A stretch of 64,000 nt of DNA, taken from IMG/VR virus record IMGVR_UViG_3300030041_000010; one strand, written 5' to 3'. Shown here piece after piece: positions 28,963 through 46,231 of this stretch; positions within the stretch are counted from its first letter, which is position 1; every line of letters begins with the position of its first letter. Source of the stretch: a virus. Under the pieces are notes generated by a model. That model was not told where the DNA came from and searched no databases. It saw nothing but the letters and a program-made list of their open reading frames with translations. The translations under genes were made by a program, and so were the position numbers.

Positions 28963-29324
28963 ATGGTTGTTTGTCCCGCAAGGGACTGAAGACGTTCTAA
29001 ACGACATTCGGACGTGGGTCCGACTCCCACCACATCCACCAAGTTTGGTTTCATTGTTTCACCTTGGGTGTGTCACGGTTTCGACGGGTGTTCAGGCGGA
29101 AGCGGTCTACAACTCGTTTTAGTATACCTGTTCGTTCTCCGGGGAGCCGGAGAGGGTCAGCGATTCCACGCAATACGGTGGATGGCATGGCCTATACGGG
29201 AATGCAACAAAAATAAATGCGGAAACTCCTGCATACGCAATGGCTGCTTAATAACCAGCCCTGCCAAGGTTGACAGTTACCTTGTTCCCAGTCCTGTCTA
29301 GGGTGAGGCCGCGAAAGCGGCCTC
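28963..29324 (+). ncRNA. ssrA: Circularly permuted (two-piece) tmRNA; tag (A)ETPAYAMAA
   Basis: T-arm plus CACATCC-ACCA (ends 29041) lies upstream of GGGTGTG...TTCGAC (starts 29066). G3.U70 pair. Resume codon GCG 29219 after ATAAAT; TAA TAA at 29249-29254. Outer ends are approximate. Confidence 0.9.
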
Positions 29325-29340
29325 TGCCGATTAGGAGTCT

Positions 29341-29583
29341 ATGTCTCGCAGAACTCACACAACCAGAACCCGTCTTAATAATTCACACTACCCTTCATTT
29401 CAAGTGCATTGGATTGAGGATGAGGACTATGGTGGCTGGACCGGCGTGGCTCAAATCTGGAGTGATGGCAATACTAAAGATGGCGGTGAGCACAAGATCT
29501 TCGTAAGCTTTTTTTCGATATCGGAGACTGCGTGTCTTTTCTCCACAATGGAGAGAGTCTCCAAGGTAGTGACACCGAGGTGA
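29341..29583 (+). CDS. Hypothetical protein
   Basis: SD AGGAG, 80 aa. Confidence 0.5.
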   Translation: MSRRTHTTRTRLNNSHYPSFQVHWIEDEDYGGWTGVAQIWSDGNTKDGGEHKIFVSFFSISETACLFSTMERVSKVVTPR

Positions 29584-29590
29584 AACTGAC

Positions 29591-29809
29591 ATGCCGACAC
29601 GCTATATCAAACCCGAGGGCGACCGTAAGCTTGAGTTCTGGAAGACATATCGCGGCGGTCAGCACAGCGAGTTTGTAAATGTTCCGGCAGATTGGGACGA
29701 GAGCGATATTCAGGAAGAACTCGAAGACTGGTGCCGGTTCGAACTTCACAACAGTGAGTTCATGCGGTACGGCTGGAACGACGAAAAAGATTTTGGTAGT
29801 AGGAGCTAG
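29591..29809 (+). CDS. Hypothetical protein
   Basis: SD GAGGTG, 72 aa. Confidence 0.55.
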   Translation: MPTRYIKPEGDRKLEFWKTYRGGQHSEFVNVPADWDESDIQEELEDWCRFELHNSEFMRYGWNDEKDFGSRS

Positions 29810-29810
29810 A

Positions 29811-29987
29811 ATGAAAATTGAAATCGAACTTGACTTTAACGACCTCATGTTGTTGGGTGCAAATGGAACCATTCAAAAAGGAGATTCGACGGTGACTATC
29901 AACCGTCCTGTTCTCCCTGAAATTGAAGGGGGTAAGGTTATTTTCAGACTTGATAACACCGACCCCCGGTCTTCCGAATTCCGCTAG
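29811..29987 (+). CDS. Hypothetical protein
   Basis: SD AGGAG; begins MKIEIELDF. Confidence 0.5.
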   Translation: MKIEIELDFNDLMLLGANGTIQKGDSTVTINRPVLPEIEGGKVIFRLDNTDPRSSEFR

Positions 29988-30628
29988 GCTGCATACTGCA
30001 ACGCTGTCTCAACTATCTCTCGGTTGCACTCTAACCAACCCACGAGTGTGTTGCAGCGGCTGCAAAGCAAGCCCCTCGCACACTCACCACATGACCCCTC
30101 TCCTGCACAGCATCTATGGTCGTGGTCTAAGCACAACACCCGGCCCTCTTCGGGCGGTGTGTGGCAGATGGCACACCCTCCGTTTTGCTTTTGCAGTGTG
30201 GTTGTGTACCATTCGTACGGAAGGTGGTGCGACCTTTCAAAGTTCTGTTCTCGGCAGCATTGCCTACATGAGCCGCGCTTCCCGGTGTGGAACGCCGATT
30301 GTGGAAGAAATGATTTATGCCTCGCACACCAGCGGTTGCCTTTGTTACTTTCACAATCTTCAGCCGACACTCCGTGTTTTGCCAATTTACTCAGTCGAAG
30401 TTTAAGTTTGTGGTTTTCGGATTTACTTACTAGAGGCCCTCCGCGCCCTCTGACGATGTTGGAAGTATCAAGACCCAACTCTTCTATGGTTTTCCAGAAT
30501 GTGCGGTGGTTCCCGGTACCATTGGTTAGTCCAAATTTATGAAGAATTTGACAAACATGAGTGGACTCGGTAATAATCGTTTGTAGTTCAACTGGAGTTA
30601 CAGATTTCAAAGTAGCATATTTTTGCAC
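29984..30628 (-). CDS. Endonuclease VII-family (HNH-like) homing endonuclease
   Basis: QNGGCAIC...LDHDH...RGLLCSRCNTLVG. Confidence 0.85.
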   Translation of the reverse strand: MQKYATLKSVTPVELQTIITESTHVCQILHKFGLTNGTGNHRTFWKTIEELGLDTSNIVRGRGGPLVSKSENHKLKLRLSKLAKHGVSAEDCESNKGNRWCARHKSFLPQSAFHTGKRGSCRQCCREQNFERSHHLPYEWYTTTLQKQNGGCAICHTPPEEGRVLCLDHDHRCCAGEGSCGECARGLLCSRCNTLVGWLECNREIVETALQYAA

Positions 30629-30654
30629 GGTAGCCTCAAGGAGGGGCTAAATGT

Positions 30655-31023
30655 ATGACCTAGCTGAATGACCCCTACATCTATGTATTTGTTAGACAAG
30701 ATTTTCCCAAAGATAATCTTGCCCAACAGATAGTCCAATCCAACCACGCCACTTTCGAGATGGCAAAACGACTCACCGACTACAATGAAACACCTTCGGT
30801 TGTCCTCATCGGTATCCCCGACAAGTCATCCCTTGAAGCCGTAGCCGCTAGGCTCACGCGCTATGGTATCGCATTCGAGGCTTTTTATGAGCCTGACTAC
30901 GACCTTGGCCTCACCGCTATCGCCACATACCCCATCACTAATAAGAAGCAGCGTCGTGCTCTTGGTACGTACAAGCTTTGGTCTCCACAGGAATCAACTC
31001 TCCTGTTACAGGAGGCGGCATAA
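30655..31023 (+). CDS. Pth2-like peptidyl-tRNA hydrolase with an in-frame TAG at codon 3
   Basis: SD AAGGAGG, then ATG ACC TAG CTG AAT...; YIYVFVRQD...QQIVQSNHA...FYEPD...LTAIAT resembles Pth2-like proteins. Confidence 0.65.
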
Positions 31024-31379
31024 TGGCTATTCAATGCTCCATCAAAGGGTGCCCTAACGATAAGGCTTGGGCGATTGTCAGCGACAAAGCTGTCCATCGC
31101 ATTACCTTCAGCAAGGCGCTTGCCGACCACGCTGTGAAGCTTTCCAGCCTTCCCTATCATGTGGAGCGTGTCTCCATCAGGGAAGGCAGCAAGGAGCTTC
31201 AGAAGGGTGAGGTCTCATCCACCGGGCTCTATGCCATCATCGACCGCAGGAAGGGCAAGATACTCCGCGTGGCTCTCCATCAGACTATCGCTGAGATTCT
31301 CGCCGCCGACTACAAGAACCGTAAAGTCACGGAAGCTTTCATCATCCGTGAAAGAGAGGAGGTTGCCTGTGCAGCCTAA
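31023..31379 (+). CDS. Hypothetical protein with an internal duplication
   Basis: SD GGAGG; WAIV...RITFSKALA and YAII...RVALHQTIA. Confidence 0.5.
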   Translation: MAIQCSIKGCPNDKAWAIVSDKAVHRITFSKALADHAVKLSSLPYHVERVSIREGSKELQKGEVSSTGLYAIIDRRKGKILRVALHQTIAEILAADYKNRKVTEAFIIREREEVACAA

Positions 31380-31878
31380 CGAAGTTGTACGCCTTATTGA
31401 ACCATCAGAGCCCCTCGTAGCCACCGACGAGGATATGGCGAGAAACACTCGTCTTATGGATATAGCCAAAGAAGGCTATGTCATTATCATCAAGAAGCCG
31501 AACGACGACAAGCTTTACGGGCCGGTCGAGAACTCATTCAGTCTTGGTGTGGAACCAAACCGTACGTTTCTCTACTGGTCGAGCGTCCGCTGGAACCTTG
31601 ACGCTTGGACTTGGGCTAACCGGGACTTCGAGAAGGGTAAGCAGAACAACCCCGACTGGGAGTACACCATTTACAAGGCCATGGACGAGAACCTTCCGGT
31701 GGTCATCAACTGGAATGTGTGGCTCGATGCCCACATGCCTTCCGACAAGACGTTGAGTGGGGTTAAAAGCACCTACGATTCACGTAATCTCAAGTTCACG
31801 TTGAAGGGTGAAGCAGCGGACAAGCAGAAGTTAGCACATGCTCAGTCCATGAGAGTCACGACGTATCCACTGGTCTAA
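31369..31878 (+). CDS. Hypothetical protein
   Basis: GTG start after GGAGG. Confidence 0.55.
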   Translation: MQPNEVVRLIEPSEPLVATDEDMARNTRLMDIAKEGYVIIIKKPNDDKLYGPVENSFSLGVEPNRTFLYWSSVRWNLDAWTWANRDFEKGKQNNPDWEYTIYKAMDENLPVVINWNVWLDAHMPSDKTLSGVKSTYDSRNLKFTLKGEAADKQKLAHAQSMRVTTYPLV

Positions 31879-31890
31879 GGAGTTAATGAC

Positions 31891-32364
31891 ATGAGTACAC
31901 AAGTTGAACTTCTTGTTCGTACAGACGCTCTTCGTAAAATTCTTGAAGAAGAGCCCGAGGTCAAACTTAAGCTTCAGAACATGGCTATCGAAAAGATTGC
32001 CGAGGAGCTTAAGCGTAAAGCCCAAACCATCTCTCTTGCTCAGTTTGAGTTGGAGATGCAGTCCACCATTCGGAAGTCCATCGCCGAATTCAACAAGAGC
32101 ATCACCAGCACGTACAAGTTCCCTCCCGAGGCCAAGGCTATCATTGAGTCCCTCGTCAAGGAAGCTGTACAGACGTACTTCAAGGCCGAAGTCACCCGGT
32201 GGGAGAAGGCCGTCAATGAGTTCTTCGCCGCCAAGCAAGCCGAATCCGACCGGCTTACCGAGGCGAAGGTATTTGAGGCCATCGAAAAGATGCGTCCCGC
32301 CATCAAACAACAGGCTCGTGAGGAGTTCATCGCTACTCTCGAAGCCGTGAAGGGTAAGGCATGA
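31891..32364 (+). CDS. Coiled-coil hypothetical protein
   Basis: SD AAGGAG; E/K/A-rich. Confidence 0.6.
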   Translation: MSTQVELLVRTDALRKILEEEPEVKLKLQNMAIEKIAEELKRKAQTISLAQFELEMQSTIRKSIAEFNKSITSTYKFPPEAKAIIESLVKEAVQTYFKAEVTRWEKAVNEFFAAKQAESDRLTEAKVFEAIEKMRPAIKQQAREEFIATLEAVKGKA

Positions 32365-32999
32365 AGAGCAAGGAACTTATAAGGTTGTTACAAGAAGAAG
32401 ACCCCAGTGGGGAGGTTGAAGTCAGCGTGGGCAACCGTGACATTTTCAGCCTCCACACGGAGCCAAGTTATTGGGATGGTCGAGCCCAATTACTTATCAG
32501 AGACTACAGTAAAGACCCGTATTACAACGTAGTGGGAGCCAAGTATACGTCAAGGGGCAGCAAGGTAGTCATCACCGCCATGGGTGTAACTGATGCCATC
32601 TTGAACAATCCCGATTTGCCGGTGGACTACTCTGAGGTTGGTAACGAGGACACGGCAAAGCGATACCGTGAAACCGACGACAAAACCCGCGAGGAAATAC
32701 GCAACATTGAACTCAAGGTGGAGATGGAAGCATTTCACAACTGGGTCAAGAAAAAAATGGATGAGATTCGTCCCGGAGAAGACTGTCGTTTTGAAGCAGA
32801 CCAGTTTTATCGGCACGCCCCACTAAGCCCGAAAGACCCGGTGAAGGACTTGCCGCCGAAGAAGGGAAGCGACGGATACATGTGGCGTCCAAGCTGGAAT
32901 GAATGCCGCGAGGCCATGTGGGAGGACACGATTGAAGTGTACTGGGGGCTTGGCGTTGGCATCCGGAAGAAAGTCGAGGGGCAGACGACCGAAGTCTGA
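32361..32999 (+). CDS. Hypothetical protein
   Basis: ATGA overlap with the upstream gene; 212 aa. Confidence 0.6.
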   Translation: MKSKELIRLLQEEDPSGEVEVSVGNRDIFSLHTEPSYWDGRAQLLIRDYSKDPYYNVVGAKYTSRGSKVVITAMGVTDAILNNPDLPVDYSEVGNEDTAKRYRETDDKTREEIRNIELKVEMEAFHNWVKKKMDEIRPGEDCRFEADQFYRHAPLSPKDPVKDLPPKKGSDGYMWRPSWNECREAMWEDTIEVYWGLGVGIRKKVEGQTTEV

Positions 33000-33111
33000 C
33001 GCAGGGGGCTGCGTCAAATCTGCCCCCGTCCCTGCTGTGATACGGTGAAAGGATAGAAGCCCGTATCCAGCATCATTCAAACTGTAGCACAACGAAGAAG
33101 GAGTTACAAAC

Positions 33112-33285
33112 ATGACGTAGGATATGGAAAACAGCAAAATCCTCGCCGAGGCGGTTCTCAAAGCATTCGTACAACACGACAAAGGGAAACACACCTGTTG
33201 CCGCTTTTGTAAGGTGTGGTTGCACTGGGAAGACCATGACAGTGAATGCCCTGTGCTACTCGCTCAAAGCGTCAGCAGGAGCTAA
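33112..33285 (+). CDS. Small Cys/His Zn-binding protein with an in-frame TAG at codon 3
   Basis: SD AAGGAG, then ATG ACG TAG GAT ATG GAA...; CCRFC...H...CP. Confidence 0.55.
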
Positions 33286-33906
33286 ATGGTTGTTCAGGTA
33301 GACCTGATACCAGTCTGTGGATATTTCCCGCTGTGCCTCTTGTAGAGTCATGGTGTGGGTGACACATACCTGATGGTGTAGCCAGTTCTCCACAGCGTCC
33401 TTCGCGTGGGCTCCGGGCACGCCATCAGCCGGATTGTACGGCTGGATGAACAGGTTTTTAATGTCGTCGGCACCACCTAGTTCAAGAGAATCGATATGGT
33501 CAACCTCGCAGGATTCAATTCGCTGCTGGCCGGATGCGGTGGTGCGGCTGGTTGGAGCACAGATACCCTCGTGTGGAGCCACCCCATAGGCACGGTACAC
33601 TTCCATCTTCATCGCTTCGGTGGTGTGCCTGAACTCTTTGGTGCTGGTGCTGCATACTTCATCCGCAGTGACGCCGGGGCGGAGCATACCGGGAGAGATG
33701 TTAGGATTGGGTAGGAGTACCTGTCCATGATGGTAGAACCTACCCGGACCGGGGCCGACATCGTTTATTGTCAGCCTTTGACGTTTTTCAGTCGGGGCGG
33801 TTTGAAAGTGCATTTTAAGCAGAGGGTGAAAGAGAAACCAAAGGGTTATCAGAGTTAAGGCTGTGGTGATTAACCATAATTTTAATAGAACCCATAATCT
33901 CTTCAT
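33256..33906 (-). CDS. Membrane-anchored/secreted HNH-like protein
   Basis: N-terminal hydrophobic helix; EVDHIDSLELGGADDIKNL...KDAVEN. Confidence 0.65.
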   Translation of the reverse strand: MKRLWVLLKLWLITTALTLITLWFLFHPLLKMHFQTAPTEKRQRLTINDVGPGPGRFYHHGQVLLPNPNISPGMLRPGVTADEVCSTSTKEFRHTTEAMKMEVYRAYGVAPHEGICAPTSRTTASGQQRIESCEVDHIDSLELGGADDIKNLFIQPYNPADGVPGAHAKDAVENWLHHQVCVTHTMTLQEAQREISTDWYQVYLNNHLAPADALSE

Positions 33907-33933
33907 GGGTAAAGTATACAGTATTAGGTGAGC

Positions 33934-34314: not shown

Positions 34315-34340
34315 GGCTGAGTATGTACTATGTACTAAGT

Positions 34341-34417
34341 GCCCCCGTAGCTCAACTGGTTAGAGTGACGGTCTCTAAAACCGGAGGTTGTGGGTTCGAG
34401 TCCCTCCGGGGGCACCA
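34341..34417 (+). tRNA. tRNA with CUA anticodon (amber suppressor), copy 1
   Basis: GCCCCCG/CGGGGGC acceptor, anticodon loop CTCTAAA, T-loop TTCGAGT, ACCA end. Confidence 0.85.
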
Positions 34418-34471
34418 AAGGTGTGAGGGTGGTGATGGTCACGATGAACGAAGACAAAGGGCACTGTAACC

Positions 34472-35004: not shown

Positions 35005-35054
35005 CATGCCAACGATTCAGATAAACGCCGACGAAGTAAAACGCATTAAGTAAT

Positions 35055-35132
35055 GCGCCCGTAGCTCAGTTGGCTAGAGCGGGGGTCTCTAAAGCCCTGT
35101 CAGCGTGGGTTCAAGTCCCACCGGGCGCACCA
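35055..35132 (+). tRNA. tRNA with CUA anticodon (amber suppressor), copy 2
   Basis: GCGCCCG/CGGGCGC acceptor, GGGGT-CTCTAAA-GCCCT anticodon arm, TTCAAGT, ACCA. Confidence 0.85.
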
Positions 35133-35185
35133 TTAAGCGTCGTATTGTGATACACTGTTCATGGCTTCTCTAAGAAGGTAAGGTT

Positions 35186-35469: not shown

Positions 35470-35884
35470 CCCAAAGACTGGCAAAACACCTATGCATTTG
35501 AAGAACCGGGCTGAGTGGGAAGAGCACTACCTTGCTCATCATCTCGCCGAGGACGAACCGGAACTTTATATGCTGTGGAAAAATAATTGAAAGTTTGTGT
35601 TTGAAAATCAACTTTCAATGGTATTATGTAGACAGTGGTGGTTAAACACCGCTGAGACCGGGGAGGTAGAGTAAAATCTACGTTCCCGACCATGCCGGGT
35701 TAGTGGGCAACTATTATCCCGGCTCCATCGGGGGGTTTGGTGAAATATCTGGGCTCCCCGACCAAAAAGGCTAATCCCTAAGACTCGAAGTACCAGAAGT
35801 GGGAAACAGGGTTTATAAAGAGCAGGTTTACCTCCGGCCTAAGCATTAAGTTTCTTGAACATGTAACAAAGAAGGAAATCGTAC

Positions 35885-35971
35885 ATGCGTCTGACGAGCC
35901 AAACACGAATTACTACCACAACGCAAACCAGCGGTGGCGGTATCGTAGTGTCTGGCACGGAATTCGACTAA
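35885..35971 (+). CDS. Thr-rich attenuator leader peptide MRLTSQTRITTTTQTSGGGIVVSGTEFD
   Basis: SD AAGGA; 8 of 28 codons are Thr, including consecutive ACT ACC ACA ACG. Confidence 0.75.
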   Translation: MRLTSQTRITTTTQTSGGGIVVSGTEFD

Positions 35972-36001
35972 AACAAGAGTCAAATCCAACTAGACGCAAA
36001 C

Positions 36002-36036
36002 GAGCCGCCCAACACCGGGGCGGCTTTAGTGTTTTT
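36002..36036 (+). terminator. Attenuator terminator hairpin
   Basis: GAGCCGCCC/GGGCGGCTT stem followed by a T-rich tract; its 5' arm overlaps the antiterminator. Confidence 0.7.
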
Positions 36037-36047: not shown

Positions 36048-36437
36048 ATGGCGAGTTTTGAAGAACATTGTCAGGACTGTTATAGGCTTTTATCTGACCG
36101 TTGCGAAAACGTGAACCGTTGGATGGACGATTGTTTCAAGCAGTTCGGTCCCTTGCACCGATTTGCCCGACATCACTGGCGTGGGGTTGATGAAGCGGAG
36201 CAGTTGTTTGGGGCTCTCGGTCGTAAGGCGGCGATAGTTCATATCCTGAAGGACTGTGGACAGGTGCCAAAGGCGAGGGAATGGGCAGACGGCCAGAGTG
36301 TTGACAGCCTCGGCATGAAGCCCGGTGGGAAGTTTAACGGTCACTGGGAGCCGGAGCAGTTCGATAAGGTCGCCTGTGGTCACGTGGGTTTGGATAACCT
36401 GATGCTCAAGGCTCGTTATCAGGCGAGGGCATCGTGA
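36048..36437 (+). CDS. His-rich conserved phage protein (DUF6915-like)
   Basis: H...WMD...HRFARHH..G...AEQLFG...HILKDCG. Confidence 0.55.
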   Translation: MASFEEHCQDCYRLLSDRCENVNRWMDDCFKQFGPLHRFARHHWRGVDEAEQLFGALGRKAAIVHILKDCGQVPKAREWADGQSVDSLGMKPGGKFNGHWEPEQFDKVACGHVGLDNLMLKARYQARAS

Positions 36438-36694
36438 GTATCGAAGACATTATCAGTCAACTCCGGGCTGAAAGAAAAGATGTACGCGGAGATGGATTTG
36501 GATACGCGGGGTCGTTAATCTCCGCGTACAAGAAAGCAATCACGGCTCTCGAAGAGTTGCAGGAGAAGTTGAAAGAGACTCCTCCACCAGCAGAGGTTGA
36601 GAGTTTGAAAGCGGCTAACCCTGATTGCTTTGGATTCGGCAGTGACAACACCGCCGAGTGTAAATGCCGCAAAGTTTTTGCGCCTTTCGCCTAG
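36434..36694 (+). CDS. Hypothetical protein
   Basis: GTGA overlap with the upstream gene. Confidence 0.45.
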   Translation: MSIEDIISQLRAERKDVRGDGFGYAGSLISAYKKAITALEELQEKLKETPPPAEVESLKAANPDCFGFGSDNTAECKCRKVFAPFA

Positions 36695-36754
36695 CGGCTA
36701 GGGCCTCCGACCGATTATCGGATGACCAGAGTTCGAGTCTCTGAGGGCGCACCA
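36680..36754 (+). tRNA. Atypical tRNA, nominal anticodon GAT (Ile?), loop CCGATTA
   Basis: GCGCCTT/AGGGCGC acceptor, TCCGA/TCGGA anticodon stem, TTCGAGT, ACCA; C33 and U37 are non-canonical. Confidence 0.65.
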
Positions 36755-36759: not shown

Positions 36760-36914
36760 GGGCTTGCTGTGGTCAGGCACGTAGGGAGAAAACCGGCACT
36801 CAGAGTCGGCAAGGTACGCGACCTTGCTTTATGTCTGAGATGGGAAACCGAAAGGTATTGCCCTTCAGGAAGACCTCATGCGTAGAGGCGGTTCAACTCC
36901 GCCCAAGTCCATCA
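36760..36914 (+). ncRNA. 155-nt tRNA-Ala/tmRNA-like RNA with a large structured insert
   Basis: GGGCTTG/CAAGTCC acceptor with G3.U70 and A73; T-arm GGCGG-TTCAACT-CCGCC; no anticodon arm. Confidence 0.65.
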
Positions 36915-36923: not shown

Positions 36924-36998
36924 GCCCGTATGGCTCAGTGGTAGCGCAGTCGCTTGATAAGCGAAAGGTCGTTGGTTCGATCCCAACTACGGGCACCA
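36924..36998 (+). tRNA. tRNA-Ile(GAT)
   Basis: Cloverleaf, loop TTGATAA, ACCA. Confidence 0.85.
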
Positions 36999-37124
36999 AG
37001 TAAAATATGCGGCATGTCGTGAGTTTGTAGCTGGTAAGAATGCCGACATGTCGTGGGCTCAGAAGAAAGAGCCGAAGAAAAAGAAACACGCTTTGCCAAG
37101 TGGCGAGGCAACACAGGGTTGATT

Positions 37125-37224
37125 TTCCGTATGACTGAGGGTGGCGTAAACCACACTGTTGTCAGAACTCAAAATGGTTTTTACGGATCATGCGAGTTCG
37201 TAGGTTCGACTCCGACTACGGAAC
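37125..37224 (+). ncRNA. tRNA-like RNA with enlarged arms
   Basis: TTCCGTA/TACGGAA acceptor, T-loop TTCGACT, inner stems TGAC/GTCA and GAACTC/GAGTTC. Confidence 0.45.
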
Positions 37225-37235
37225 GAATTTGAAAT

Positions 37236-37318
37236 GCCACGGTGGCACAGCGGCGACTGCAACGGTTCCGTAAACCGTCACACCAACATCGGGGGTTCGA
37301 GTCCCTCCCGTGGCCCCA
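37236..37318 (+). tRNA. tRNA-Thr(CGT)
   Basis: GCCACGG/CCGTGGC acceptor, loop TCCGTAA (C33), long variable loop, CCA. Confidence 0.75.
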
Positions 37319-37322
37319 AGTT

Positions 37323-37625
37323 ATGAAGATGTACATCCTAATTCGCGAGGTGGTACCTGTGGGCAAGGCGGTACTAATCTCTGCACATGCCTCGCTGGCG
37401 TGCTACCTGAAGTTTAAGGAACGGCCTGAGATGCAGACATGGGTGAGTAGTCAATTCTTTAAGGTTGTATGTACTGTAACTGACGCAGAATTTGAACGGG
37501 CAAAGACCGAGGCTGACAACGTGGTATTGACGGAATCCACGTTGGAAAATGTAGAGGTTGCTGTAGCTTTCTGTCCTCGGGAAGAATATCCGAAGATGTT
37601 TAAGTTTTTGCGGTTGTGGAAATAG
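37323..37625 (+). CDS. Pth2-like peptidyl-tRNA hydrolase
   Basis: MKMYILIR...AHASLA...W...F.KVVC.V...L.LW. Confidence 0.7.
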   Translation: MKMYILIREVVPVGKAVLISAHASLACYLKFKERPEMQTWVSSQFFKVVCTVTDAEFERAKTEADNVVLTESTLENVEVAVAFCPREEYPKMFKFLRLWK

Positions 37626-37696
37626 GGGTGATGGCGACGGTAGTCTAGCTGCCTTTGAAGCAGTGAATGAGGGTTCGACTCCCTCCGCCCCTGCCA
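37624..37696 (+). tRNA. tRNA-Gln(TTG)
   Basis: GCTGC-CTTTGAA-GCAGT anticodon arm, TTCGACT, GCCA. Confidence 0.8.
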
Positions 37697-37709
37697 AGTT
37701 TAGGTTTAT

Positions 37710-37786
37710 GCCAACGTAGCTCAGATGGTCAGAGCGGCAGTTTTGTAAACTGCGGGTCGGGGGTTCGATGCCCTCCGTTGGCTCCA
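37710..37786 (+). tRNA. tRNA-Thr(TGT)
   Basis: GCCAACG/CGTTGGC acceptor, loop TTTGTAA, TCCA. Confidence 0.88.
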
Positions 37787-37799
37787 GTTTAGTTGTTTT

Positions 37800-37875
37800 G
37801 CAGATGTAGCATAGCGGTCAATGCGCCTCCCTTGTAACGAGGACGCCGTCAGTTCGAATCTGACCATCTGCTCCA
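37800..37875 (+). tRNA. tRNA-Thr(TGT), second divergent copy
   Basis: GCAGATG/CATCTGC acceptor, loop CTTGTAA, TCCA. Confidence 0.85.
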
Positions 37876-38012
37876 GTTTGAGGTACGATATGAGAGTTAT
37901 CAGCATCGCGTTGTACCGATTTGCTCAGGCGCTGTCTTACGTTCTACCTGAGTCGATATGGGAACCAGTGACCTATCCAATCGACCGATTGCGTTGGTGG
38001 TTCGAAAAACAT

Positions 38013-38088
38013 GCACCTGTCGTCTAGTGGCTCAGGACTCCTCCTTGGTATGGAGGGTACAGGGGTTCAAATCCCCTCGGGTGCTCCA
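38013..38088 (+). tRNA. tRNA-Thr(GGT)
   Basis: GCACCTG/CGGGTGC acceptor, CCTCC-TTGGTAT-GGAGG, TCCA. Confidence 0.85.
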
Positions 38089-38109
38089 ATTTTATGGTAT
38101 TGTTCTTCT

Positions 38110-38328
38110 ATGAGTACATTGACGTGGGAAGAACGAAACCAGCGGATTAAAAAGGAACAGCTTACTGAAGAAGAGTTGGGGACTTTAGTAGGCTGTGCTG
38201 TAACCGGAGTGCGGAGATTCTGGGGTCATGGAGCAGAGTATGAAATCCGCTTCGATGATGGTCGAACGCTCTACATTACCAAGAGCGACTACACCAACGA
38301 TGTAGTTTGCATGTTCAAAGAGTTTTAA
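38110..38328 (+). CDS. Hypothetical protein (probably leaderless)
   Basis: TGGTATTGT 6 nt before ATG. Confidence 0.5.
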   Translation: MSTLTWEERNQRIKKEQLTEEELGTLVGCAVTGVRRFWGHGAEYEIRFDDGRTLYITKSDYTNDVVCMFKEF

Positions 38329-38618
38329 GCTACGAGTCGTGGCTCCAGTTTCCGTATTAGTGAGTATTAGTGAGTACGAGGTACTGACTAAATGGGTAAG
38401 AAAGTTGAAAAGGGGTTGTGTTGGGAGTTGGATGATTCGGAGTGTGATATCAACGCCCCCTCACCGCATTTCACGGATGACAGTAGCGAACGTGAGAACG
38501 ACTATCTGTACGGGACGTTTCCCGTGCTGATTCCTAAGAGGCCACCTTCAAGGTTGCAACCTCCGAAGGAACCAAAAGAGTAAATCGCGCAATATAAGTG
38601 GCGCGATTCAGGTTTTAA

Positions 38619-38798
38619 TTGCGTGATTCGGAATCGCGCCATAACGCCGCTTGTGGCAAGCAAGCCACTTGGGTTCGTCACACGCAGTTTGCCGGTACTC
38701 ATCCTTTCTGCACTGAGTGTGCAAAGAAGGAAGATGATTTTGGTGAAGAGTCCAGCTATGTGGTTTGGGAGGAGCTTTTACATGAAGTTGCTCAGTAG
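38619..38798 (+). CDS. Small Zn-finger-like protein (below the ORF-track cutoff)
   Basis: CGKQATW...PFCTECAKKE; start codon uncertain. Confidence 0.45.
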   Translation: MRDSESRHNAACGKQATWVRHTQFAGTHPFCTECAKKEDDFGEESSYVVWEELLHEVAQ

Positions 38799-38972
38799 TT
38801 GGTTCTTCTTCGTGCCTCCATTCACGATCCTGCCTCGGTGGAAGTTGGCAGTTATGCGTCAGTGGCTGTGGAGGTATCAGAGGTATACACAGCCGGGAGT
38901 TCGTGGATGTCCTATGAATGGGGATGCTTTCGGTTGTATCGGATTTTGGATGAGGAAGCTTGTCAATTTTAG

Positions 38973-39048
38973 GCCGGAGTAGCTCAGTTGTTAGAGCGCC
39001 GTCTTGGTAAGACGGAGGTCACGGGTTAGAACCCCGTCTCTGGCTCCA
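38973..39048 (+). tRNA. tRNA-Thr(GGT), second divergent copy
   Basis: GCCGGAG/CTCTGGC acceptor, CCGTC-TTGGTAA-GACGG; atypical D and T loops. Confidence 0.8.
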
Positions 39049-39275: not shown

Positions 39276-39872
39276 ATGGAACAGTATCCGAGTATCGAAG
39301 GCAGTTCAAAGGCCCCCCTTGGTGAGGCGGGTCTTGCCTTCTACAAGTATGACGGCTCGAACCTCAGGTGGGAGTGGAACCCCAAGAAGGGGTGGTTCAA
39401 GTTTGGCACCCGCACCCAACTGTTCGATAAGTCGGAGCCGTTATTTGGTCAGGCCATTCCCCTTTTTATGCAGATGGGCGATGAGATTGTCCATCGTGTG
39501 AAAAGTGTTGAACGACAACCGCAACGCATTACAGCTTACACGGAATTCTTCGGCGAGAGCAGTTTCGCCGGGAGCCATATTCTGGAAGAGCCGAAGCAAC
39601 TCAAGTTGTTCGATGTGTACTTGTTCAAGAAGGGGTTAATGAAGCCCCGACAGTTTGTGAAGACCTTTGGTGGTTTGCCTTATGTAGCGGAAGTGGTTTA
39701 CGATGGCAACATCAACCAATCATTTGTTCAGGGGGTCCGGGCTGGAGAGTATCCAGTTTGGGAGGGGGTCGTCTGCAAGGGCGACAACTTCATGTTCAAG
39801 GTGAAGACCGATGCCTACTTGAGGAAGCTGCGGCAGGTATACCCGCAGCGATGGAATCAGTTTTGGGAGTGA
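39276..39872 (+). CDS. RNA ligase-family nucleotidyltransferase
   Basis: Motifs KYDGSN, EFFG, LFDV, EGVV, FKVK. Confidence 0.75.
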   Translation: MEQYPSIEGSSKAPLGEAGLAFYKYDGSNLRWEWNPKKGWFKFGTRTQLFDKSEPLFGQAIPLFMQMGDEIVHRVKSVERQPQRITAYTEFFGESSFAGSHILEEPKQLKLFDVYLFKKGLMKPRQFVKTFGGLPYVAEVVYDGNINQSFVQGVRAGEYPVWEGVVCKGDNFMFKVKTDAYLRKLRQVYPQRWNQFWE

Positions 39873-39874
39873 GC

Positions 39875-40171: not shown

Positions 40172-40183
40172 GTATTAGTCTGC

Positions 40184-40504: not shown

Positions 40505-40513
40505 AGGTTTGCA

Positions 40514-40714
40514 ATGAAACTTGATTTGCAATCGGCTTCGCGTAAGCCTGACTTTTGGTGGAAAAATCCTATCCTTGTGATGACCCTCGGTCTGATAGCC
40601 ATCGTCTTCGGGGTCTTCGTCCACAACCCGGCTGGTGAGCATATTGCCAATATCGGGACATACGTTCTCGCAGCCGGGATTGTGGTTTGGATACTCAGGC
40701 TGAGACGTTCATGA
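40514..40714 (+). CDS. Small two-helix membrane protein
   Basis: Two hydrophobic segments; SD GAGG. Confidence 0.5.
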   Translation: MKLDLQSASRKPDFWWKNPILVMTLGLIAIVFGVFVHNPAGEHIANIGTYVLAAGIVVWILRLRRS

Positions 40715-41013
40715 AGATGTACATTCTAATCCGGGATGCTGTTCCACCGGGTCTTGCCGTAGTAGCCGCTGCCCATGCGTCATTGGCGTGCTACCTGAGA
40801 TTTCAAGACCACCCGGACATGAAGAAGTGGTTGGAAGGACCGTTCTACAAGGCGGTCTGCAAGGTCTCTGATGGCGAGTTTGAAAAGGCCAAGGAAGAGC
40901 GAGACCATGTGGTGCTCACCGAGTCGGCATGGTTGGTTCAGGAAACAGCGATTGCATTCGTGCCCCGTGAAGAGTATCCGAAGATGTTCAAGTTTCTGAG
41001 GTTGTACAAATGA
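40711..41013 (+). CDS. Pth2-like peptidyl-tRNA hydrolase, paralog of 37323..37625
   Basis: Shares MKMYILIR, AHASLACYL and PREEYPKMFKFLRL. Confidence 0.7.
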   Translation: MKMYILIRDAVPPGLAVVAAAHASLACYLRFQDHPDMKKWLEGPFYKAVCKVSDGEFEKAKEERDHVVLTESAWLVQETAIAFVPREEYPKMFKFLRLYK

Positions 41014-41273
41014 ATCGCAGGTCGTTTCTTAAAAGTTTTTTCGTAGTCGCGGGTGTTGCAACGGTCGCACCTGAGATGCTGCTACCTAAGTCAGACTCGA
41101 TTACCGAGGAGATTGGGTCTCTCTGCTATAACCCCATGACTGTTGGACAGATGGCGGCTGGATTTGCGATGATTCAAAAGCATGATTTCGTACCGTCATA
41201 CATGTTCGTGCATCCTCGGGTGTACAAGGAATTCGGTGGTGTGTTTGTTCATTGCTCTCGTTACGAGGATTAA
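41010..41273 (+). CDS. Small protein with a Tat-like signal
   Basis: MNRRSFLKSFFVVAGVA. Confidence 0.55.
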   Translation: MNRRSFLKSFFVVAGVATVAPEMLLPKSDSITEEIGSLCYNPMTVGQMAAGFAMIQKHDFVPSYMFVHPRVYKEFGGVFVHCSRYED

Positions 41274-41349
41274 CCATTCCGGGTTCGTTTTGGGAGCGAT
41301 AATAGTGGCTGAGTGCGTATTGAATAAAAAGAAGGTTTATGGAGATTAT

Positions 41350-41529
41350 ATGGCAAAGGTCATTCAAGTTGAGATTCCAAGAAGTACCATACAAGAGTTG
41401 AACGGCGACGGAGCTTTTGCTCACAACCTGTACAACGCCATCCTTGAAGCAGAAGCCACTGGCAAGGTAGTTGAAGTGCCGGTCGGAGAAGCTCGGAAGA
41501 GGGCACAAGTAGCTATCGTGGAGGGCTAA
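41350..41529 (+). CDS. Hypothetical protein
   Basis: SD GGAG. Confidence 0.5.
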   Translation: MAKVIQVEIPRSTIQELNGDGAFAHNLYNAILEAEATGKVVEVPVGEARKRAQVAIVEG

Positions 41530-41969
41530 TGCCTCAAGGTGCGTTCAGAACCGTCTGGTTCATAGAAAAGTGGGCGATTAAAATCCCTCGGTCACCTGAA
41601 GGCTTGAAAGCCAATCAACGTGAAGTTGCCAAGTGGCGAAGCATTGGGAACACCATCTTTGACTACCCCGGTGGCAACATTCGATTATGTCCTATTGTGT
41701 TCTCCCTTCCATTTGGTTTCGCTGTGGTCATGCGTCGAGCCAAATTGCTACCTCCCAACTACTTCGCCGACTTGAAGACTTTTACCAGAACCCAATTTCT
41801 GTTCCACACCGTTCGACAGAACATCATGGACACGGATTACCTAAAGGCAAGCAACTATGGTTTCCTTGACGGTACTTTAGTTGTGTTGGATTATGCTGGT
41901 CTTGATGGCACAGAAAATGGAATTATGGTAAAAGTTAAGTACGACACCAAAGATTGGGGTCGGTGGTAG
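41529..41969 (+). CDS. Minimal protein-kinase-like protein
   Basis: GAFRTV..AIKIP...NQRE...VVMRRA...D...SNYG...VVLDYA. Confidence 0.55.
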   Translation: MPQGAFRTVWFIEKWAIKIPRSPEGLKANQREVAKWRSIGNTIFDYPGGNIRLCPIVFSLPFGFAVVMRRAKLLPPNYFADLKTFTRTQFLFHTVRQNIMDTDYLKASNYGFLDGTLVVLDYAGLDGTENGIMVKVKYDTKDWGRW

Positions 41970-41991
41970 TATTATCACGTGAGGCATCTAC

Positions 41992-42570
41992 ATGTACAAA
42001 CCATACGTTCCGAACGAGAGAGTAGTTGATCGAGCGGTAGAGTTGTGGAAACGGACTCTTCTTCAGGCTCCGACTTTTGACAATGGGGCACACGATCTAC
42101 CGAACATGTTTGCCAGCGCACTGGCGACAGGTCTGGCAAACAAAAGCAAAGCAACTCCTGAGCAGCTTGAGGCGTTCGGCGAGAAGCTGAAATACTTCCT
42201 GATGAATGAGCTTTCCTTGGAGGAGATTAAAGGAGAGCCTGAGCCTGAAAATTGTTATAAGTCCCTCCACAACAGTGTGGGGGTAGATTACCATCCGGAC
42301 ACTGTGTTGAGCGCGGCTGCAAACGCTGCGGGAATCAGCACCAACCTCTTCCCATGGAAGACCAACATGAGCATCAATGTGGATTATGTGGCCTTCGGGG
42401 TGGGCTACTGTGCTCCATGGGATTACCACTACCCGTTGAAGAACGGTCGTTGGTTGATTACGCGACTCTCTGGTGAGGACATCAACAAGGTGATTGACTA
42501 CGTGGAGGGTGAGACCCCAGCGTTCACTGTGGAGGCCCCTCCTTCTCTGGCTCTGGTGGTGGCGGAATGA
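41992..42570 (+). CDS. Conserved hypothetical phage protein
   Basis: FDNG...VDYHPD..L..AA...FPWKT.M pattern. Confidence 0.6.
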   Translation: MYKPYVPNERVVDRAVELWKRTLLQAPTFDNGAHDLPNMFASALATGLANKSKATPEQLEAFGEKLKYFLMNELSLEEIKGEPEPENCYKSLHNSVGVDYHPDTVLSAAANAAGISTNLFPWKTNMSINVDYVAFGVGYCAPWDYHYPLKNGRWLITRLSGEDINKVIDYVEGETPAFTVEAPPSLALVVAE

Positions 42571-42746
42571 ACTGCCCCGAATGTCAGACAGAGTTGATCG
42601 ACAATACATGTACGATCTACTGTATGAAATGTGGGTACTACACCGGCCAGACACCTGTCACATGGGCACAGACTCAGGCGAATTTTGCCGCTATTGGTTT
42701 AAATGTTCAGAGGTTCAATCCGCTACTCGATTGTTGGGAAGAATAA

Positions 42747-42820
42747 TCCGGGCTCGTTCAATGGTAGGACAACGGACTTTGACTCCGTGAATTGAAGTTC
42801 GAATCTTCAGCCCGGAGCCA
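42747..42820 (+). tRNA. tRNA-Gln(TTG)
   Basis: TCCGGGC/GCCCGGA acceptor, loop CTTTGAC, GCCA. Confidence 0.9.
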
Positions 42821-42961
42821 ATAATTGAAAGGTTTTTTGTATGATTACTTGGCCTGAATTTTGGGGTATCATCGGTTGCACTGCAATCATGACAACTGTA
42901 ACCTACTGGTTGTCGAAAAAATAATTGGTTGCTTTTGATTTTTTGTGGTATTGTATACCTT

Positions 42962-43029
42962 GAGTCGGCTATTGCAGCCCTTCCTTCTACATCTATTGGA
43001 CAGAGCTTAGGTCTGCTGCTCTCCGACTC
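42962..43029 (+). ncRNA. Structured repeat RNA, copy 1 (Y-RNA-like)
   Basis: GAGTCGG/CCGACTC closing stem; CTATT/TGCTCT loop; GCAG/CTGC; CCT/AGG. Confidence 0.7.
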
Positions 43030-43066
43030 GCAAATTTTGAGTGTTGTTGATTGCACTCATCAAGTA

Positions 43067-43149
43067 GAACCGGCTATTGCAACCCTTCCTTCTCACTTAA
43101 TAACCCCCGCAAGGGGATTACCGATAACAGGTTTGCTGCTTTCCGGTTC
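43067..43149 (+). ncRNA. Structured repeat RNA, copy 2
   Basis: GAACCGG/CCGGTTC; GCAA/TTGC; inner CCCC-GCAA-GGGG hairpin. Confidence 0.7.
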
Positions 43150-43154
43150 ATAAC

Positions 43155-43240
43155 ATAGGTTGGCTATTGGAGCCCTTCCTTCTAAAAATCAGAGCCGCAA
43201 GGCTCACTTCGAGAATCAGGTCTCCTGCTTTCCAACCTAT
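43155..43240 (+). ncRNA. Structured repeat RNA, copy 3
   Basis: ATAGGTTGG/CCAACCTAT; GGAG/CTCC; inner GAGCC-GCAA-GGCTC hairpin. Confidence 0.7.
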
Positions 43241-43251
43241 ACTGAAAGGTA

Positions 43252-45468
43252 ATGTCCATGTCTGTACAGTCCATTGTTTTGCGTCGTTCGAACAAGGTTA
43301 TACTCCCGGTTCGGAACACCGTGTTTGTAGCCAAGTCCCCTGTGTCTCAGGCCCTTGTTGCTACTTTCAATCTGAACATTCAGTCTCTCGGCTACACCCT
43401 ATCTGCCGATGCAATCAAGGCTATCTTGAAGTTGGGTGTGACCTCGGCCACTCTTGTGTTTGATGAAGTCCTGTCGAGCCTCAAGGAAATCAAAGGCGTA
43501 CGCAGTTACAGGCCCATGTACCCGAACTTTCCGAAGCAGGTCATCGAGGCTTTGGATGCAGAACTGTACCTCAACGCGACGATGCACTATTTCAGCTTCT
43601 TGCTGGTTGACCTCACGGGTGACTCCAACAAGATTTGGTTGCCGAAGTATGCGAAGGATAAGCGTGAGCCACTTGACGAGAAGATTGAACTGCGTGTGCT
43701 CGGCGTGGCCGACAAGGTGGCTGTTGACATCCTGACCGACCGTATCGCTACGAGCAACACATCCCTCTCAGCATCGGACAAGGACGACTTGCGTACACTG
43801 CTTACCAGTGGGTATGGGCGGAACATTGACGACATGCTTTCGCGGATTAGCAACAAAGAGAACCTCGCCTTCGTGAGTTCCATCATCTTGTCGTCGGGAT
43901 CAGCAACTGACATCACTCCATATTTCCGCACGGCCACCGACATCCTACGTTTGGCGACCGCGATGAGTGGTGGTGACGTGTCGCTTAAGGACGACTCCAA
44001 GTTCAAGAAGTTCAAAAACTCAGAGCGTCGGTTCTTACTTGGCCTGTTGGAGCCTATCGGTAACAAGGTTGAGGACATGCTCCGCTGGCGCGAGCGTTGG
44101 GTGCGTCTTGGTCATCCACTGCATCCGGGTGAGTCTGCTAAGCGGTTTCCGACCACGGCTCGGGCGTTCACCATTCTCCGTAACAATGAACATGTGGACA
44201 CGTTCCGCACACAGGTGGAGTCCGCTGTTCGCTCCGGACATGTACTTCAGGCTGTGACGCTGTTGACTCAGCATCCGGGTGAGTTCGCTCGTCGGCTCGA
44301 CCACGTGTTACGTCAAGCCCCCAACGCTCACACCCAGCTTCGTGTTGTTGATGCTTTTTTGTCAGTGGCTCACGAGGTCTCAACCCCGGTTCTGTTGCAG
44401 GTACTCGCTCACTTTGAGCATCGTGATGAAACTGACCTGCGTGTTGTGTTCCCGAAGGGGAACGTGGCGAAGGTTATGTCTCTGGATAAGCCCTTGGCGA
44501 AGCTGCCAAAGATAATCACTAATGCTGTCTCTGTTGGTATCGAGTCAGTCCTGTTGTCTCGTTTCTCAGCATTGCCGGATATGGGTAAAGTATATCTCGA
44601 CCCGGCATTGCAGGATGTTCTCTTACCGTTCTCGCAGCGTTCGGCCAACAAGGCTCTCCGCACCTTGGTGCGTGGCTCCAAGTTGTCCTTCGGTGACGAG
44701 AAAAACACCATTCGTTTCTTCATCTGGTGGAAAGACGAAGATAAGTCCGATAATAGCTTCGACAACGGACGGGTTGACCTTGACCTCTCGGCGTGTGCCT
44801 ATGATGAGAATTGGGTGAGCATGGGAGCGGTGACGTATTACAACATGCGTGAGCAGTACGCAGTTCACAGCGGTGATATCACTTCGGCACCGAAAGGCGC
44901 GAGTGAGTTCATCGACGTGGATATTGCGGGGGCTGTTAAGGCTGGTGCGCGTTACATCGTTCAGACGGTTCACAGCTTCACCGGCCAGAAGTTCTCTGAC
45001 GTGCCGGAGGCTCTCGCTGGATTCATGCTTCGTGATAAGCCCCAGTCTGGTGAGGTATACGACCCTCGTACTGTTGTTGACCGGGCGGATGTGACGACCG
45101 AGGCCACCTCTGTTGTGCCGATGATTATCGACATCGTTGACCGCAAGGTTATTTGGGTTGATGCAGCGATGACAACTGGAGGTAGCCGTGGTTACCGTTA
45201 TTTCTCTCGTGGCAACAACGTAGCTTCAACCCGTGGTACAATTGAATTGTTGGGTAAGGCGTTCACCAACATTCACAAGCCGACTCTGTACAGGTTGTTA
45301 AGTCTCCACGCAGCCGTGCGTGGTGAAGTAGTAGCTACCAAGGAAGAGGCGGATGTGGTGTTTTCGGTGGAAGCCGGTACTCCTTTTGAACTCGACCGCA
45401 TCGCTTCCGAGTTCATGGCAGACGCCGTAAAGGAATCTGCTGTGAAGCGGGAGGCGGTGGCAGTCTAA
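43252..45468 (+). CDS. ROT/TROVE-like helical protein with a C-terminal TerD-like domain
   Basis: YPNFP.QV, TATDILRLA..MSGG, HPGEFARRLD; TerD-like VDLDLSA...HSGDITSAP.GASEFIDVD. Confidence 0.75.
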   Translation: MSMSVQSIVLRRSNKVILPVRNTVFVAKSPVSQALVATFNLNIQSLGYTLSADAIKAILKLGVTSATLVFDEVLSSLKEIKGVRSYRPMYPNFPKQVIEALDAELYLNATMHYFSFLLVDLTGDSNKIWLPKYAKDKREPLDEKIELRVLGVADKVAVDILTDRIATSNTSLSASDKDDLRTLLTSGYGRNIDDMLSRISNKENLAFVSSIILSSGSATDITPYFRTATDILRLATAMSGGDVSLKDDSKFKKFKNSERRFLLGLLEPIGNKVEDMLRWRERWVRLGHPLHPGESAKRFPTTARAFTILRNNEHVDTFRTQVESAVRSGHVLQAVTLLTQHPGEFARRLDHVLRQAPNAHTQLRVVDAFLSVAHEVSTPVLLQVLAHFEHRDETDLRVVFPKGNVAKVMSLDKPLAKLPKIITNAVSVGIESVLLSRFSALPDMGKVYLDPALQDVLLPFSQRSANKALRTLVRGSKLSFGDEKNTIRFFIWWKDEDKSDNSFDNGRVDLDLSACAYDENWVSMGAVTYYNMREQYAVHSGDITSAPKGASEFIDVDIAGAVKAGARYIVQTVHSFTGQKFSDVPEALAGFMLRDKPQSGEVYDPRTVVDRADVTTEATSVVPMIIDIVDRKVIWVDAAMTTGGSRGYRYFSRGNNVASTRGTIELLGKAFTNIHKPTLYRLLSLHAAVRGEVVATKEEADVVFSVEAGTPFELDRIASEFMADAVKESAVKREAVAV

Positions 45469-45534
45469 AGTTTCTTGACTATCACCCTCTAATTAGAGGG
45501 GCTATTGAAGCCCTTCCTACTAAGGGCGATAGTC

Positions 45535-46158
45535 ATGGTATTTTACACGGTATACAGAACTCAGAACATCACAAACGGCAGGTATTACTTCGGCGTCCAC
45601 AAGACTAGGAACCCGTATGATGGGTACCTTGGGTCGGGAAAAGTGCTCCGGACTGCGGTTAAAAAGTATGGTGAATCCTCGTTCATCAAGAACATATGTT
45701 TTGTCTTCGACAACCCTGAAGACGCTTTCTCCAAAGAGTTTGAATTGATTGAATCGTATCGCGAAGACCCGTTGTGCTATAACCTGAGACAAGGGGGTAG
45801 CGGGGGTTTCGACTACATCAATCAGGCGGGGCTATCACCGGGATTTAACTACATAAATGCCAACGGACTGGCTGCTGACAACAGGTTAAACCCTAAGCGA
45901 ATTGAAGCGGTCAGGGCATGTTTGGTGGCACACCCGCGCTCTCACCCTTGTTCAGAAGAAACAAAACTCAAGTTACGGAAGGCTTTGGAAGGTCGGATAT
46001 TGGGTGAACGTACCCAAGAGACCAGAGAGAAGATACGAGCCGCAAACAAAGGCAAGGTTCTATCTGAGGAGACTAAAGAAAAAATACGACAATCTCGATT
46101 AAATCGTGGTATTATTAGACATTGCGCGGCTATTGGAGCCCTTCCTTCTAAAAATTGA
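45535..46158 (+). CDS. GIY-YIG (Seg-like) homing endonuclease with NUMOD3-like repeats
   Basis: YTVYRTQN...YYFGVH...YLGSG, YNL..GG.GG, SEETK.KI repeats. Confidence 0.85.
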   Translation: MVFYTVYRTQNITNGRYYFGVHKTRNPYDGYLGSGKVLRTAVKKYGESSFIKNICFVFDNPEDAFSKEFELIESYREDPLCYNLRQGGSGGFDYINQAGLSPGFNYINANGLAADNRLNPKRIEAVRACLVAHPRSHPCSEETKLKLRKALEGRILGERTQETREKIRAANKGKVLSEETKEKIRQSRLNRGIIRHCAAIGALPSKN

Positions 46159-46197
46159 CCGATAATCAAACTAAAAGGTCTCCTGCTCTCCGCCAAT
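46121..46197 (+). ncRNA. Structured repeat RNA, copy 4
   Basis: GCGG-CTATT-GGAG-C-CCT...AGG-T-CTCC-TGCTCT-CCGC; has its own TGGTATTAT box upstream. Confidence 0.7.
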
Positions 46198-46204
46198 ACC
46201 ATCG

Positions 46205-46231
46205 AAACCCCCAAGTAAACTTGGGGGTTTT
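46205..46231 (+). terminator. Intrinsic terminator
   Basis: AAACCCCCAAG-TAAA-CTTGGGGGTTTT. Confidence 0.75.

Follow-up and report, generated by a model that had tools for sequence, protein, structure and literature searches.

Codon-matched leaders before tRNA operons and an early in-frame stop in a Pth2-fold gene: analysis of a tRNA-rich phage region

What does a phage gain from carrying, within some 17 kb, five threonine tRNAs, two tRNAs with the amber-reading anticodon CUA, a transfer-messenger RNA (tmRNA) and three genes resembling peptidyl-tRNA hydrolase 2 (Pth2)? The question is raised by positions 28963..46231 of a 64,000-nucleotide (nt) stretch (the window) from the virus record IMGVR_UViG_3300030041_000010, for which a first-pass annotation had proposed a single feedback system that senses loss of charged tRNA-Thr. 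The analysis described here points to a different arrangement. The region probably consists of three adjacent modules: an Ile/Thr/Gln tRNA operon likely opened by a leader and terminator, a Pth2-fold gene with an in-frame amber codon for which the CUA tRNAs of the phage itself are the likely readers, and a TerD-like protein with small RNAs. Related records stand in for the rest of the phage's tRNA set; five were compared whole (G001 to G005), among which G003 is complete and G004 (also labelled L107; 105 kb of a fragment) is more distant than the others. Loci of homologues are labelled with L numbers, and window features whose coordinates are written with two dots lie on the + strand.

A codon-matched leader before the Ile/Thr/Gln tRNA operon

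Ahead of the tRNA operon lies a 28-codon leader (35885..35971) with all four Thr codons in tandem, together with ATT and CAA, which the downstream GAU and UUG tRNAs decode; Thr, Ile and Gln codons account for 12 of 27, where 4.6 would be expected (p about 8e-4). It is followed by a 9-pair intrinsic terminator (36002..36036) conserved in all seven aligned loci, and leader and terminator together are retained in 7/7 loci inspected. The full leader RNA folds with the terminator (z -5.9). When the part covered by a stalled ribosome is taken away, the remainder (35930..36016) forms a predicted antiterminator in which the 3' half of the leader captures the 5' arm of the terminator (-33.2 kcal/mol, z -4.8). 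With charged tRNA plentiful, the ribosome would reach the leader stop and mask the antiterminator half, and transcription would end at 36036; if the Thr, Ile or Gln tRNAs were cleaved, blocked or overtaxed, the ribosome would stall at codons 6-13 and the tRNA genes would be transcribed. Codon match, terminator and alternative fold can all be read from the DNA, and together they suggest that the leader and terminator likely switch the tRNA genes on at shortage. Because extra tRNA helps only if tRNA, and not the amino acid, is limiting, such a switch would serve tRNA damage or overload. The attenuator that the first-pass annotation described as sensing Thr is thus there in its parts, leader and terminator, but its codons are those of Thr, Ile and Gln and not of Thr alone.

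Promoter-like hexamers with a 15-nt spacer (35601..35627) precede the leader; they were found by eye, are similar in relatives, and were not called by the promoter scan. Behind the terminator come a DUF6915 gene (36048..36437, by family match), a GAT tRNA with an atypical loop (C33, U37; 36680..36754), a canonical tRNA-Ile(GAU) (36924..36998), five tRNA-Thr (CGU, two UGU and two GGU; 37236..39048) with a tRNA-Gln(UUG) at 37624 among them, and a further tRNA-Gln(UUG) (42747..42820). In L005 and L007 a tRNA-Ile directly follows the terminator. An RNA run, X1, yielded 18 contigs matching at 99% or above over 46.5-64 kb, and one 281-nt contig over 35661-35940 with a contig depth of 156.7, versus 2.3-27.3 for the other listed pieces. 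Since contigs show neither strand, ends nor level, and uncovered parts prove nothing, these were not counted as evidence of attenuation.

Two peculiarities of this operon were also observed. Between promoter and leader stand three tandem hairpins of 30-32 nt that the first-pass annotation had passed over, each followed by N-CCA in the manner of a tRNA acceptor end (35659..35764; z -4.8, -4.1 and -2.9). Such CCA-ended minihelix arrays, with different acceptor-like stems, are possible decoys or processing marks, and occur also at L011 15262-15437, L003 14367-14506 and L001 5521-5589; arrays of four were found in G001 and G005 and none in G002-G004, by a search that returned many chance matches under loose rules and 0-2 scattered matches per shuffled 64 kb under strict ones. 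Secondly, one of the two GAT tRNAs has U37 instead of the usual A37 in all six genomes concerned (the tRNA at 36680-36754 of the window and one each in L001, L003, L005, L009 and L011), and C33 in five of the six; it may be a decoy, or may decode in the absence of the t6A modification.

The skewed tRNA content of the window was correctly counted in the first-pass annotation (ARAGORN and Rfam give 11 tRNAs: five Thr, two CUA, two GAT and two Gln(UUG)), but it is local, this being one of several operons sorted by amino acid. Calls of 32, 37 and 61 tRNAs were obtained in G001, G002 and G003, where the operon groups are Ile/Thr/Gln, Val/Gly/Ala/Cys/Asp/Glu, Tyr/Leu, Pro/Met and Phe, with Ser and Trp/Gln/His/Arg/Asn/Lys in addition in G003. 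Leader-terminator units were collected by a rule that asked for a terminator at most 900 nt from a tRNA with a short open reading frame (ORF) before it, the best frame being used for every pairing. This gave 16 units in six records, in 15 of which the operon's own tRNA set was the best-fitting one, and the true pairing of leaders with operons was the top permutation in all five multi-unit records (1/6, 1/2, 1/6, 1/6 and 1/24). In G004 the tRNAs are arranged in other groups, which the leaders follow in two of three units. Since all but one of the leaders fit their own operon best and the relatives have several operons, the Thr skew is a local matter.

Several points weigh against extending the attenuator reading to all of these units. 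The antiterminator signal is modest, beating 95% of shuffles in 7/16 units and 90% in 12/16, and leaders of other units often pair equally well in the same test; G001, G002, G003 and G005 are kin, and their units cannot be counted as independent; the Phe tRNAs showed no clear match to a leader; and the Pro, Ser and Phe units escaped the rule, the Ser unit having a leader with seven Ser codons in a run. As a side observation, the Val/Gly/Ala operon of G003 is preceded by a sigma-factor-like ORF (88355-88980) and then by long structured non-coding stretches.

A Pth2-fold gene with an early in-frame amber codon

In the second module a gene (30655..31023) has TAG as its third codon (30661-30663), and its next ATG lies past the first strand and a conserved Gln/His helix. 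A promoter-like site (11/12 by the promoter scan) precedes it at 30548..30577. Among the Met-x-TAG strings of the window, only those at 30655 and 33112, both on the + strand, have a ribosome-binding site, and both read ATG-ACN-TAG, as the first-pass annotation had seen. A model of the protein (pLDDT 76) matched Pth2 structures by Foldseek (E 2.6e-5; TM 0.59-0.67 for the top ten), including PDB 2zv3, 1rlk and 1q7s, and a profile match to 24bt was obtained (E 0.0013); neither Pfam nor NCBIfam gave a match. The count of three Pth2-like genes made from the sequence holds, two lying above the Pfam PTH2 cut-off and this one having the fold by model only. The Lys, Asp and Thr residues of Pth2 have catalytic roles, and the Lys and the Asp-Ala-Gly-x-Thr of the aligned Pth2 (24bt) are replaced in this protein, so that any hydrolase activity is putative. 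Human PTRHD1, a similar Pth2-like protein, has been reported to bind RNA without hydrolase activity.

In the loci first collected, the in-frame TAG stood ahead of the first strand in 11/11 (7 distinct). Wider searches gave 106 further loci and 33 annotated records, ten of which were examined; from 116 loci, six were dropped (N-terminus unmatched or contig end), leaving 76 distinct sequences, some of them near-identical. A stop occurs 2-13 codons past the start in 68 of the 76 (67 TAG and one TGA), these being called gated below, and is missing from eight; clustering at 70% identity gave 31 clusters, of which 24 hold gated sequences only, six are open and one is mixed. Seven of the ten annotated records examined are gated, and the stop is kept among homologues of 30-80% identity. 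The residue before it is Leu in 22, Thr in 16, His in 15, Ala in 6, Gln in 5, Arg in 2, and Glu and Ser in one each, so that the amber is conserved and the preceding Thr is not. A purine follows the gating stop in 64/68, compared with 56/109 ordinary TAG ends, and the body of the gene is conserved in the manner of a working protein. When 155 short-stop starts were gathered in six records, only two families recurred between genomes, the gated gene and the family of 33112, both with TAG.

The stop is accompanied by tRNAs that could read it. In the window, a tRNA with the CUA anticodon (suppressor type; 34341..34417) and a second with a different body (35055..35132) were called by ARAGORN and Rfam. 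Among gated loci with at least 3 kb downstream, 27/28 have a suppressor-type tRNA by relaxed ARAGORN; in several cases the tRNA is less than 100 nt from the gated gene. ARAGORN relaxed to -ps80 returned many spurious suppressor calls. In L114 the gate is TGA and a normal-sized, 76-nt UCA tRNA lies 36 nt behind the open frame, its body resembling a CUA tRNA of L182. Conversely L108, nested among gated genes in a quick tree (used solely to place L108 and L171), starts normally, having lost the stop, and a canonical CUA tRNA is missing from its locus, in a record that is 36% complete. Cultured phages are included: Serratia BF, GAP32, CBB, RsoM2USA, ME3 and Arash all have a gated gene that their annotations truncate or leave out, and the five of them searched for CUA tRNAs (BF, GAP32, RsoM2USA, ME3 and Arash) have them, as does LR756511. 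From the conserved stop, the lack of another start, the adjacent suppressor-type tRNA and the joint swap to TGA and UCA, it is likely that the stop is read through. Any inserted amino acid would do, because the inserted residue precedes the fold, and this fits the varied tRNA bodies; output of the gated gene would then depend on how well the suppressor tRNA competes with the release factor.

Other findings fit readthrough less well. L108 retains an enlarged tRNA-like RNA with a CUA-containing loop; G004 is gated, and no credible CUA tRNA was found in its 105 kb of a fragment; the ungated L119, L019, XacN1 and RAS14 still have CUA tRNAs, which must therefore have other uses or linger; and a possible start codon follows the stop in 4/68 gated genes. 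Two further accounts of the stop were rejected. Frameshift entry from a better-spaced ATG at 30651, in another frame, fails in that L123, 83% identical, lacks that ATG. Recoding of TAG (code 15) fails in that 22 of 67 long window ORFs end in TAG; the code is standard. The label of tRNA-Pyl (pyrrolysine) was likewise rejected beyond its use by ARAGORN for CUA, the bodies varying in acceptor stem and discriminator. No internal TAG was found on the coding strand of conserved window genes, in a screen swamped by antisense and off-frame alignments; no longer fusion of the gated protein was found by word search, a weak method; and no relative of the gene was found in the genome-contig collection.

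The other Met-Thr-TAG opening belongs to a small Cys/His protein gene (33112..33285) and is shared by 3/3 relatives. All four copies, however, also have a possible restart codon, in the window within two codons of the stop, so that gating of this gene is no firmer than a candidate.

As to what the stop is for, the purpose tentatively preferred here is that of a termination gauge, sensing release-factor activity. A fall in that activity would give more gated protein, while the suppressor tRNA would clear stalls at UAG and the neighbouring tmRNA would clear run-off ribosomes; a tmRNA lies near the gated gene in 18/26 loci with 5.5 kb upstream. G003 and G002 also encode release-factor-like domains elsewhere in the genome. 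It is quite possible, though, that readthrough of the amber senses nothing and serves to limit or time the dose, a possibly harmful protein being kept low and delayed until the suppressor tRNA matures. All evidence for coupling of amber and tRNA fits this equally; the third or so of window ORFs that end in TAG means that suppression must be weak and output low, which suits it; and suppressor-timed genes have been proposed for recoded phages (bioRxiv 10.1101/2021.08.26.457843). A weak ribosome-binding site would be a cheaper limit on dose, however, and the stop has been kept across distant homologues and once swapped together with its tRNA. A third reading is improbable: that the stop is not read through, the short frame being a minigene or coupling device, and that the protein is either a relic or made from a non-standard start codon. 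Most homologues do have a Val or Ile codon after the stop, a restart codon is usable in 4/4 copies of the second Met-Thr-TAG gene, and minigenes give peptidyl-tRNA drop-off (PMC8012679); but the post-stop codons vary (GTT, GTC, GGG, GAT, AAT, ACC) with no common start among them, the gene body is conserved like that of a working protein, and the TGA gate comes with a UCA tRNA.

A few features of gated genes and their tRNAs stand apart from the termination gauge and its rivals. L101 (7612-7930), L007, L009 and L164 have two or three CUA tRNAs per genome with differing acceptor stems and discriminators, and in L112 (7041-7118) a tRNA called with the ochre-reading UUA anticodon lies beside two CUA tRNAs. 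In G003 (134039-135021; L074) a release-factor-1-like domain adjoins an RNA ligase within the Pro tRNA operon. In XacN1 ORF364 (L200) and RAS14 (L204) the Pth2-like domain stands behind a 170-residue domain with His-Asp motifs, with no stop. L107, L114, L115, L120 and L182 have promoter-like hexamers directly before the start of the gated gene and no clear ribosome-binding site, which suggests leaderless mRNAs.

The remaining genes and RNAs, and the region as a whole

The third module is a 738-aa protein (43252..45468) whose nearest labels, under cut-off, are TerD and MXAN_6230/SCO0854. It is adjoined by three Y-like small RNAs (42962..43240), and is followed at 45499..46196 by a half small-RNA copy, a homing-endonuclease-like gene and a fourth full copy; four full copies and a half thus flank the gene. 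Compensatory changes occur in 9/14 pairs across 10 copies, the core motif was seen by eye near 14/15 TerD-like homologues, and the protein is predicted to bind its small RNAs. The TROVE-like label given to it earlier was rejected on family matching: 0/16 homologues match TROVE, no PDB profile matched, and the small RNAs matched no Rfam Y RNA. The single-sequence model (pLDDT 37) is too poor to judge the fold, which may yet be of the TROVE type. The homing-endonuclease-like gene lies between half and full copy as if inserted, in the window and at L012 12258-12952, and some small-RNA copies carry at their tip a permuted tRNA-like insert, with T arm before D arm (L012 9771-9870; flanks in L019, L028 and L029).

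At the left of the region a sigma-70-type promoter-like site (28927..28956; 11/12 in the promoter scan) precedes a permuted, two-piece tmRNA (28949..29342), found by ARAGORN and by Rfam (RF04321, 73 bits); a tmRNA had been listed in the first-pass annotation. The tmRNA-like RNA, of 153 nt (36760..36912), does have tmRNA-type ends, with an alanine-type (G3-U70) acceptor stem and T arm, and the sole other holder of its 21-nt 3' stretch in the viral contig collection is a tmRNA. It gave no ARAGORN or Rfam match, is not a full tmRNA length with a tag frame, folds weakly (z -1.2), and was not found in any of the five relatives. A tRNA-like element with a T arm, matching ends and an enlarged middle (37124-37227) was likewise not seen in relatives. 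Pth2-like gene 2 (37323..37625; PF01981, E 4.8e-6) and gene 3 (40711..41013; 64% identical to gene 2) lie above the Pfam cut-off and far below the NCBIfam equivalog cut-offs, and among the five relatives have a relative only in G001. The RNA ligase named in the first-pass annotation (39276..39872) matches PHROG 548 (E 1.6e-7). Outside the region, at 50827-53223, are NAD salvage genes, a nicotinamide phosphoribosyltransferase and an upstream nucleotidyltransferase-like ORF, such genes being a known type of counter-defence kit.

The arrangement of these parts bears on whether they form one system. The CUA tRNAs and amber genes sit upstream of the attenuator, behind a separate promoter-like site. 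In the complete G003 the ligase is at 134 kb, the TerD-like gene at 205 kb and the Thr operon at 17-19 kb, and the genome lacks Pth2 genes 2 and 3, the minihelices and the tmRNA-like RNA. These parts therefore assort independently, which is the first half of what had been named as telling against an integrated system, and the ligase, Pth2 genes 2 and 3, the TerD-like gene and the tmRNA-like RNA are passengers of a variable tRNA region, given the distances in G003 and the lack of several of them in relatives. The feedback idea itself fits the attenuator and its own tRNA operon, and its extension to the whole 17 kb is not supported. Its proposed driver, Thr-rich virion proteins, is borne out in that Thr makes up 10-15% of four large proteins encoded at the left of the window; only one of them has a tail-family match, and that a weak one. 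It is therefore very unlikely that a single integrated island monitors charged tRNA-Thr and directs the replacement, recycling and repair of tRNA: although G005 has five Thr tRNAs as the window does, the second amber gene keeps Met-Thr-TAG in all its copies, the large proteins are rich in Thr, and the operon of G001 has the ligase, Pth2 gene 2 and the TerD-like gene close by (that of G005 the first and last of these), Thr precedes the amber in just 16/68 gated homologues, G003 has 3 Thr among 61 tRNAs (below Leu with 6 and Pro with 5) and its ligase and TerD-like gene distant from the Thr operon, a leader of its own accompanies every other tRNA family tested, and the Thr-rich proteins are likewise 10-13% Ser. 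With Thr not conserved before the amber and the tRNA skew local, Thr was rejected as organiser of the region.

Known systems and meaning for phage biology

The leader-peptide transcription attenuators thrL and ilvL of enterobacteria, thrL reading Thr and Ile, share with the phage leader a short frame with a run of regulatory codons, a (here predicted) antiterminator half in its 3' part, and a G+C hairpin with U tract. Unlike them, the phage leader precedes tRNA genes and not biosynthetic or synthetase genes, and the design repeats before several operons with rematched codons. An early in-frame stop that ties output to release-factor activity is also known from the frameshift autoregulation of prfB; bypass in the phage gene would instead be by suppressor tRNA, and the product is no release factor. 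In occurring as several closed-stem copies next to a single large protein gene, the small RNAs resemble the Y RNAs of Ro60 (TROVE), from which they differ in the lack of TROVE or Rfam Y RNA matches and in a TerD/SCO0854-like protein.

The trn operon (L-array) of Anabaena PCC 7120 is a silent tRNA array induced by translation stress and co-regulated with an RNA ligase (PMC8421152); it differs from the phage operon in standing under promoter repeats and a repressor and in not being amino-acid-specific, and PMC8421152 does not use the word 'leader'. In recoded phages, suppressor tRNAs gate genes with in-frame stops (bioRxiv 10.1101/2021.08.26.457843). The present case differs in its standard code, in having one or two conserved gated genes with a Pth2-fold gene as target, and in a stop 2-13 codons from the start whose residue is not fixed. 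Pth2, RNA ligases and TROVE proteins of jumbo phages have been reported as ribosome-rescue and RNA-repair genes (PMC7824862); the gated protein shares the fold of Pth2 from archaea, eukaryotes and jumbo phages and, unlike them, does not keep the canonical catalytic motif. The hydrolase of CBB in the published account is CBB_392 (PMC5259590), whereas the gated gene in CBB is the truncated hypothetical CBB_406. A literature search that covered sources other than subscription journals found no paper on attenuators before tRNA genes, nor any on an amber-gated Pth2; suppressor tRNAs may be mentioned in supplementary tRNA tables.

These findings address why phages carry tRNAs, and why those with a standard code carry stop-suppressor tRNAs. 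Operon-matched attenuators would show that supply tracks shortage of specific tRNAs, and would serve as ready reporters of defences that target tRNA. In the amber-gated gene, which public annotations miss or truncate, suppressor tRNAs have a conserved target, one that can be tested in cultured phages now. Perhaps, and this is the most speculative step taken here, these phages check the entire decoding table by means of sensors read by the ribosome: each tRNA family would have its codon-matched attenuator, and a stop-codon sensor, in which suppressor tRNA and release factor compete, would activate a peptidyl-tRNA-recycling protein. Such an audit, if true, would tell the phage where in translation a host defence has struck, so that just that part is resupplied, and it would account for the orphan suppressor tRNAs found in jumbo phages that use the standard code.

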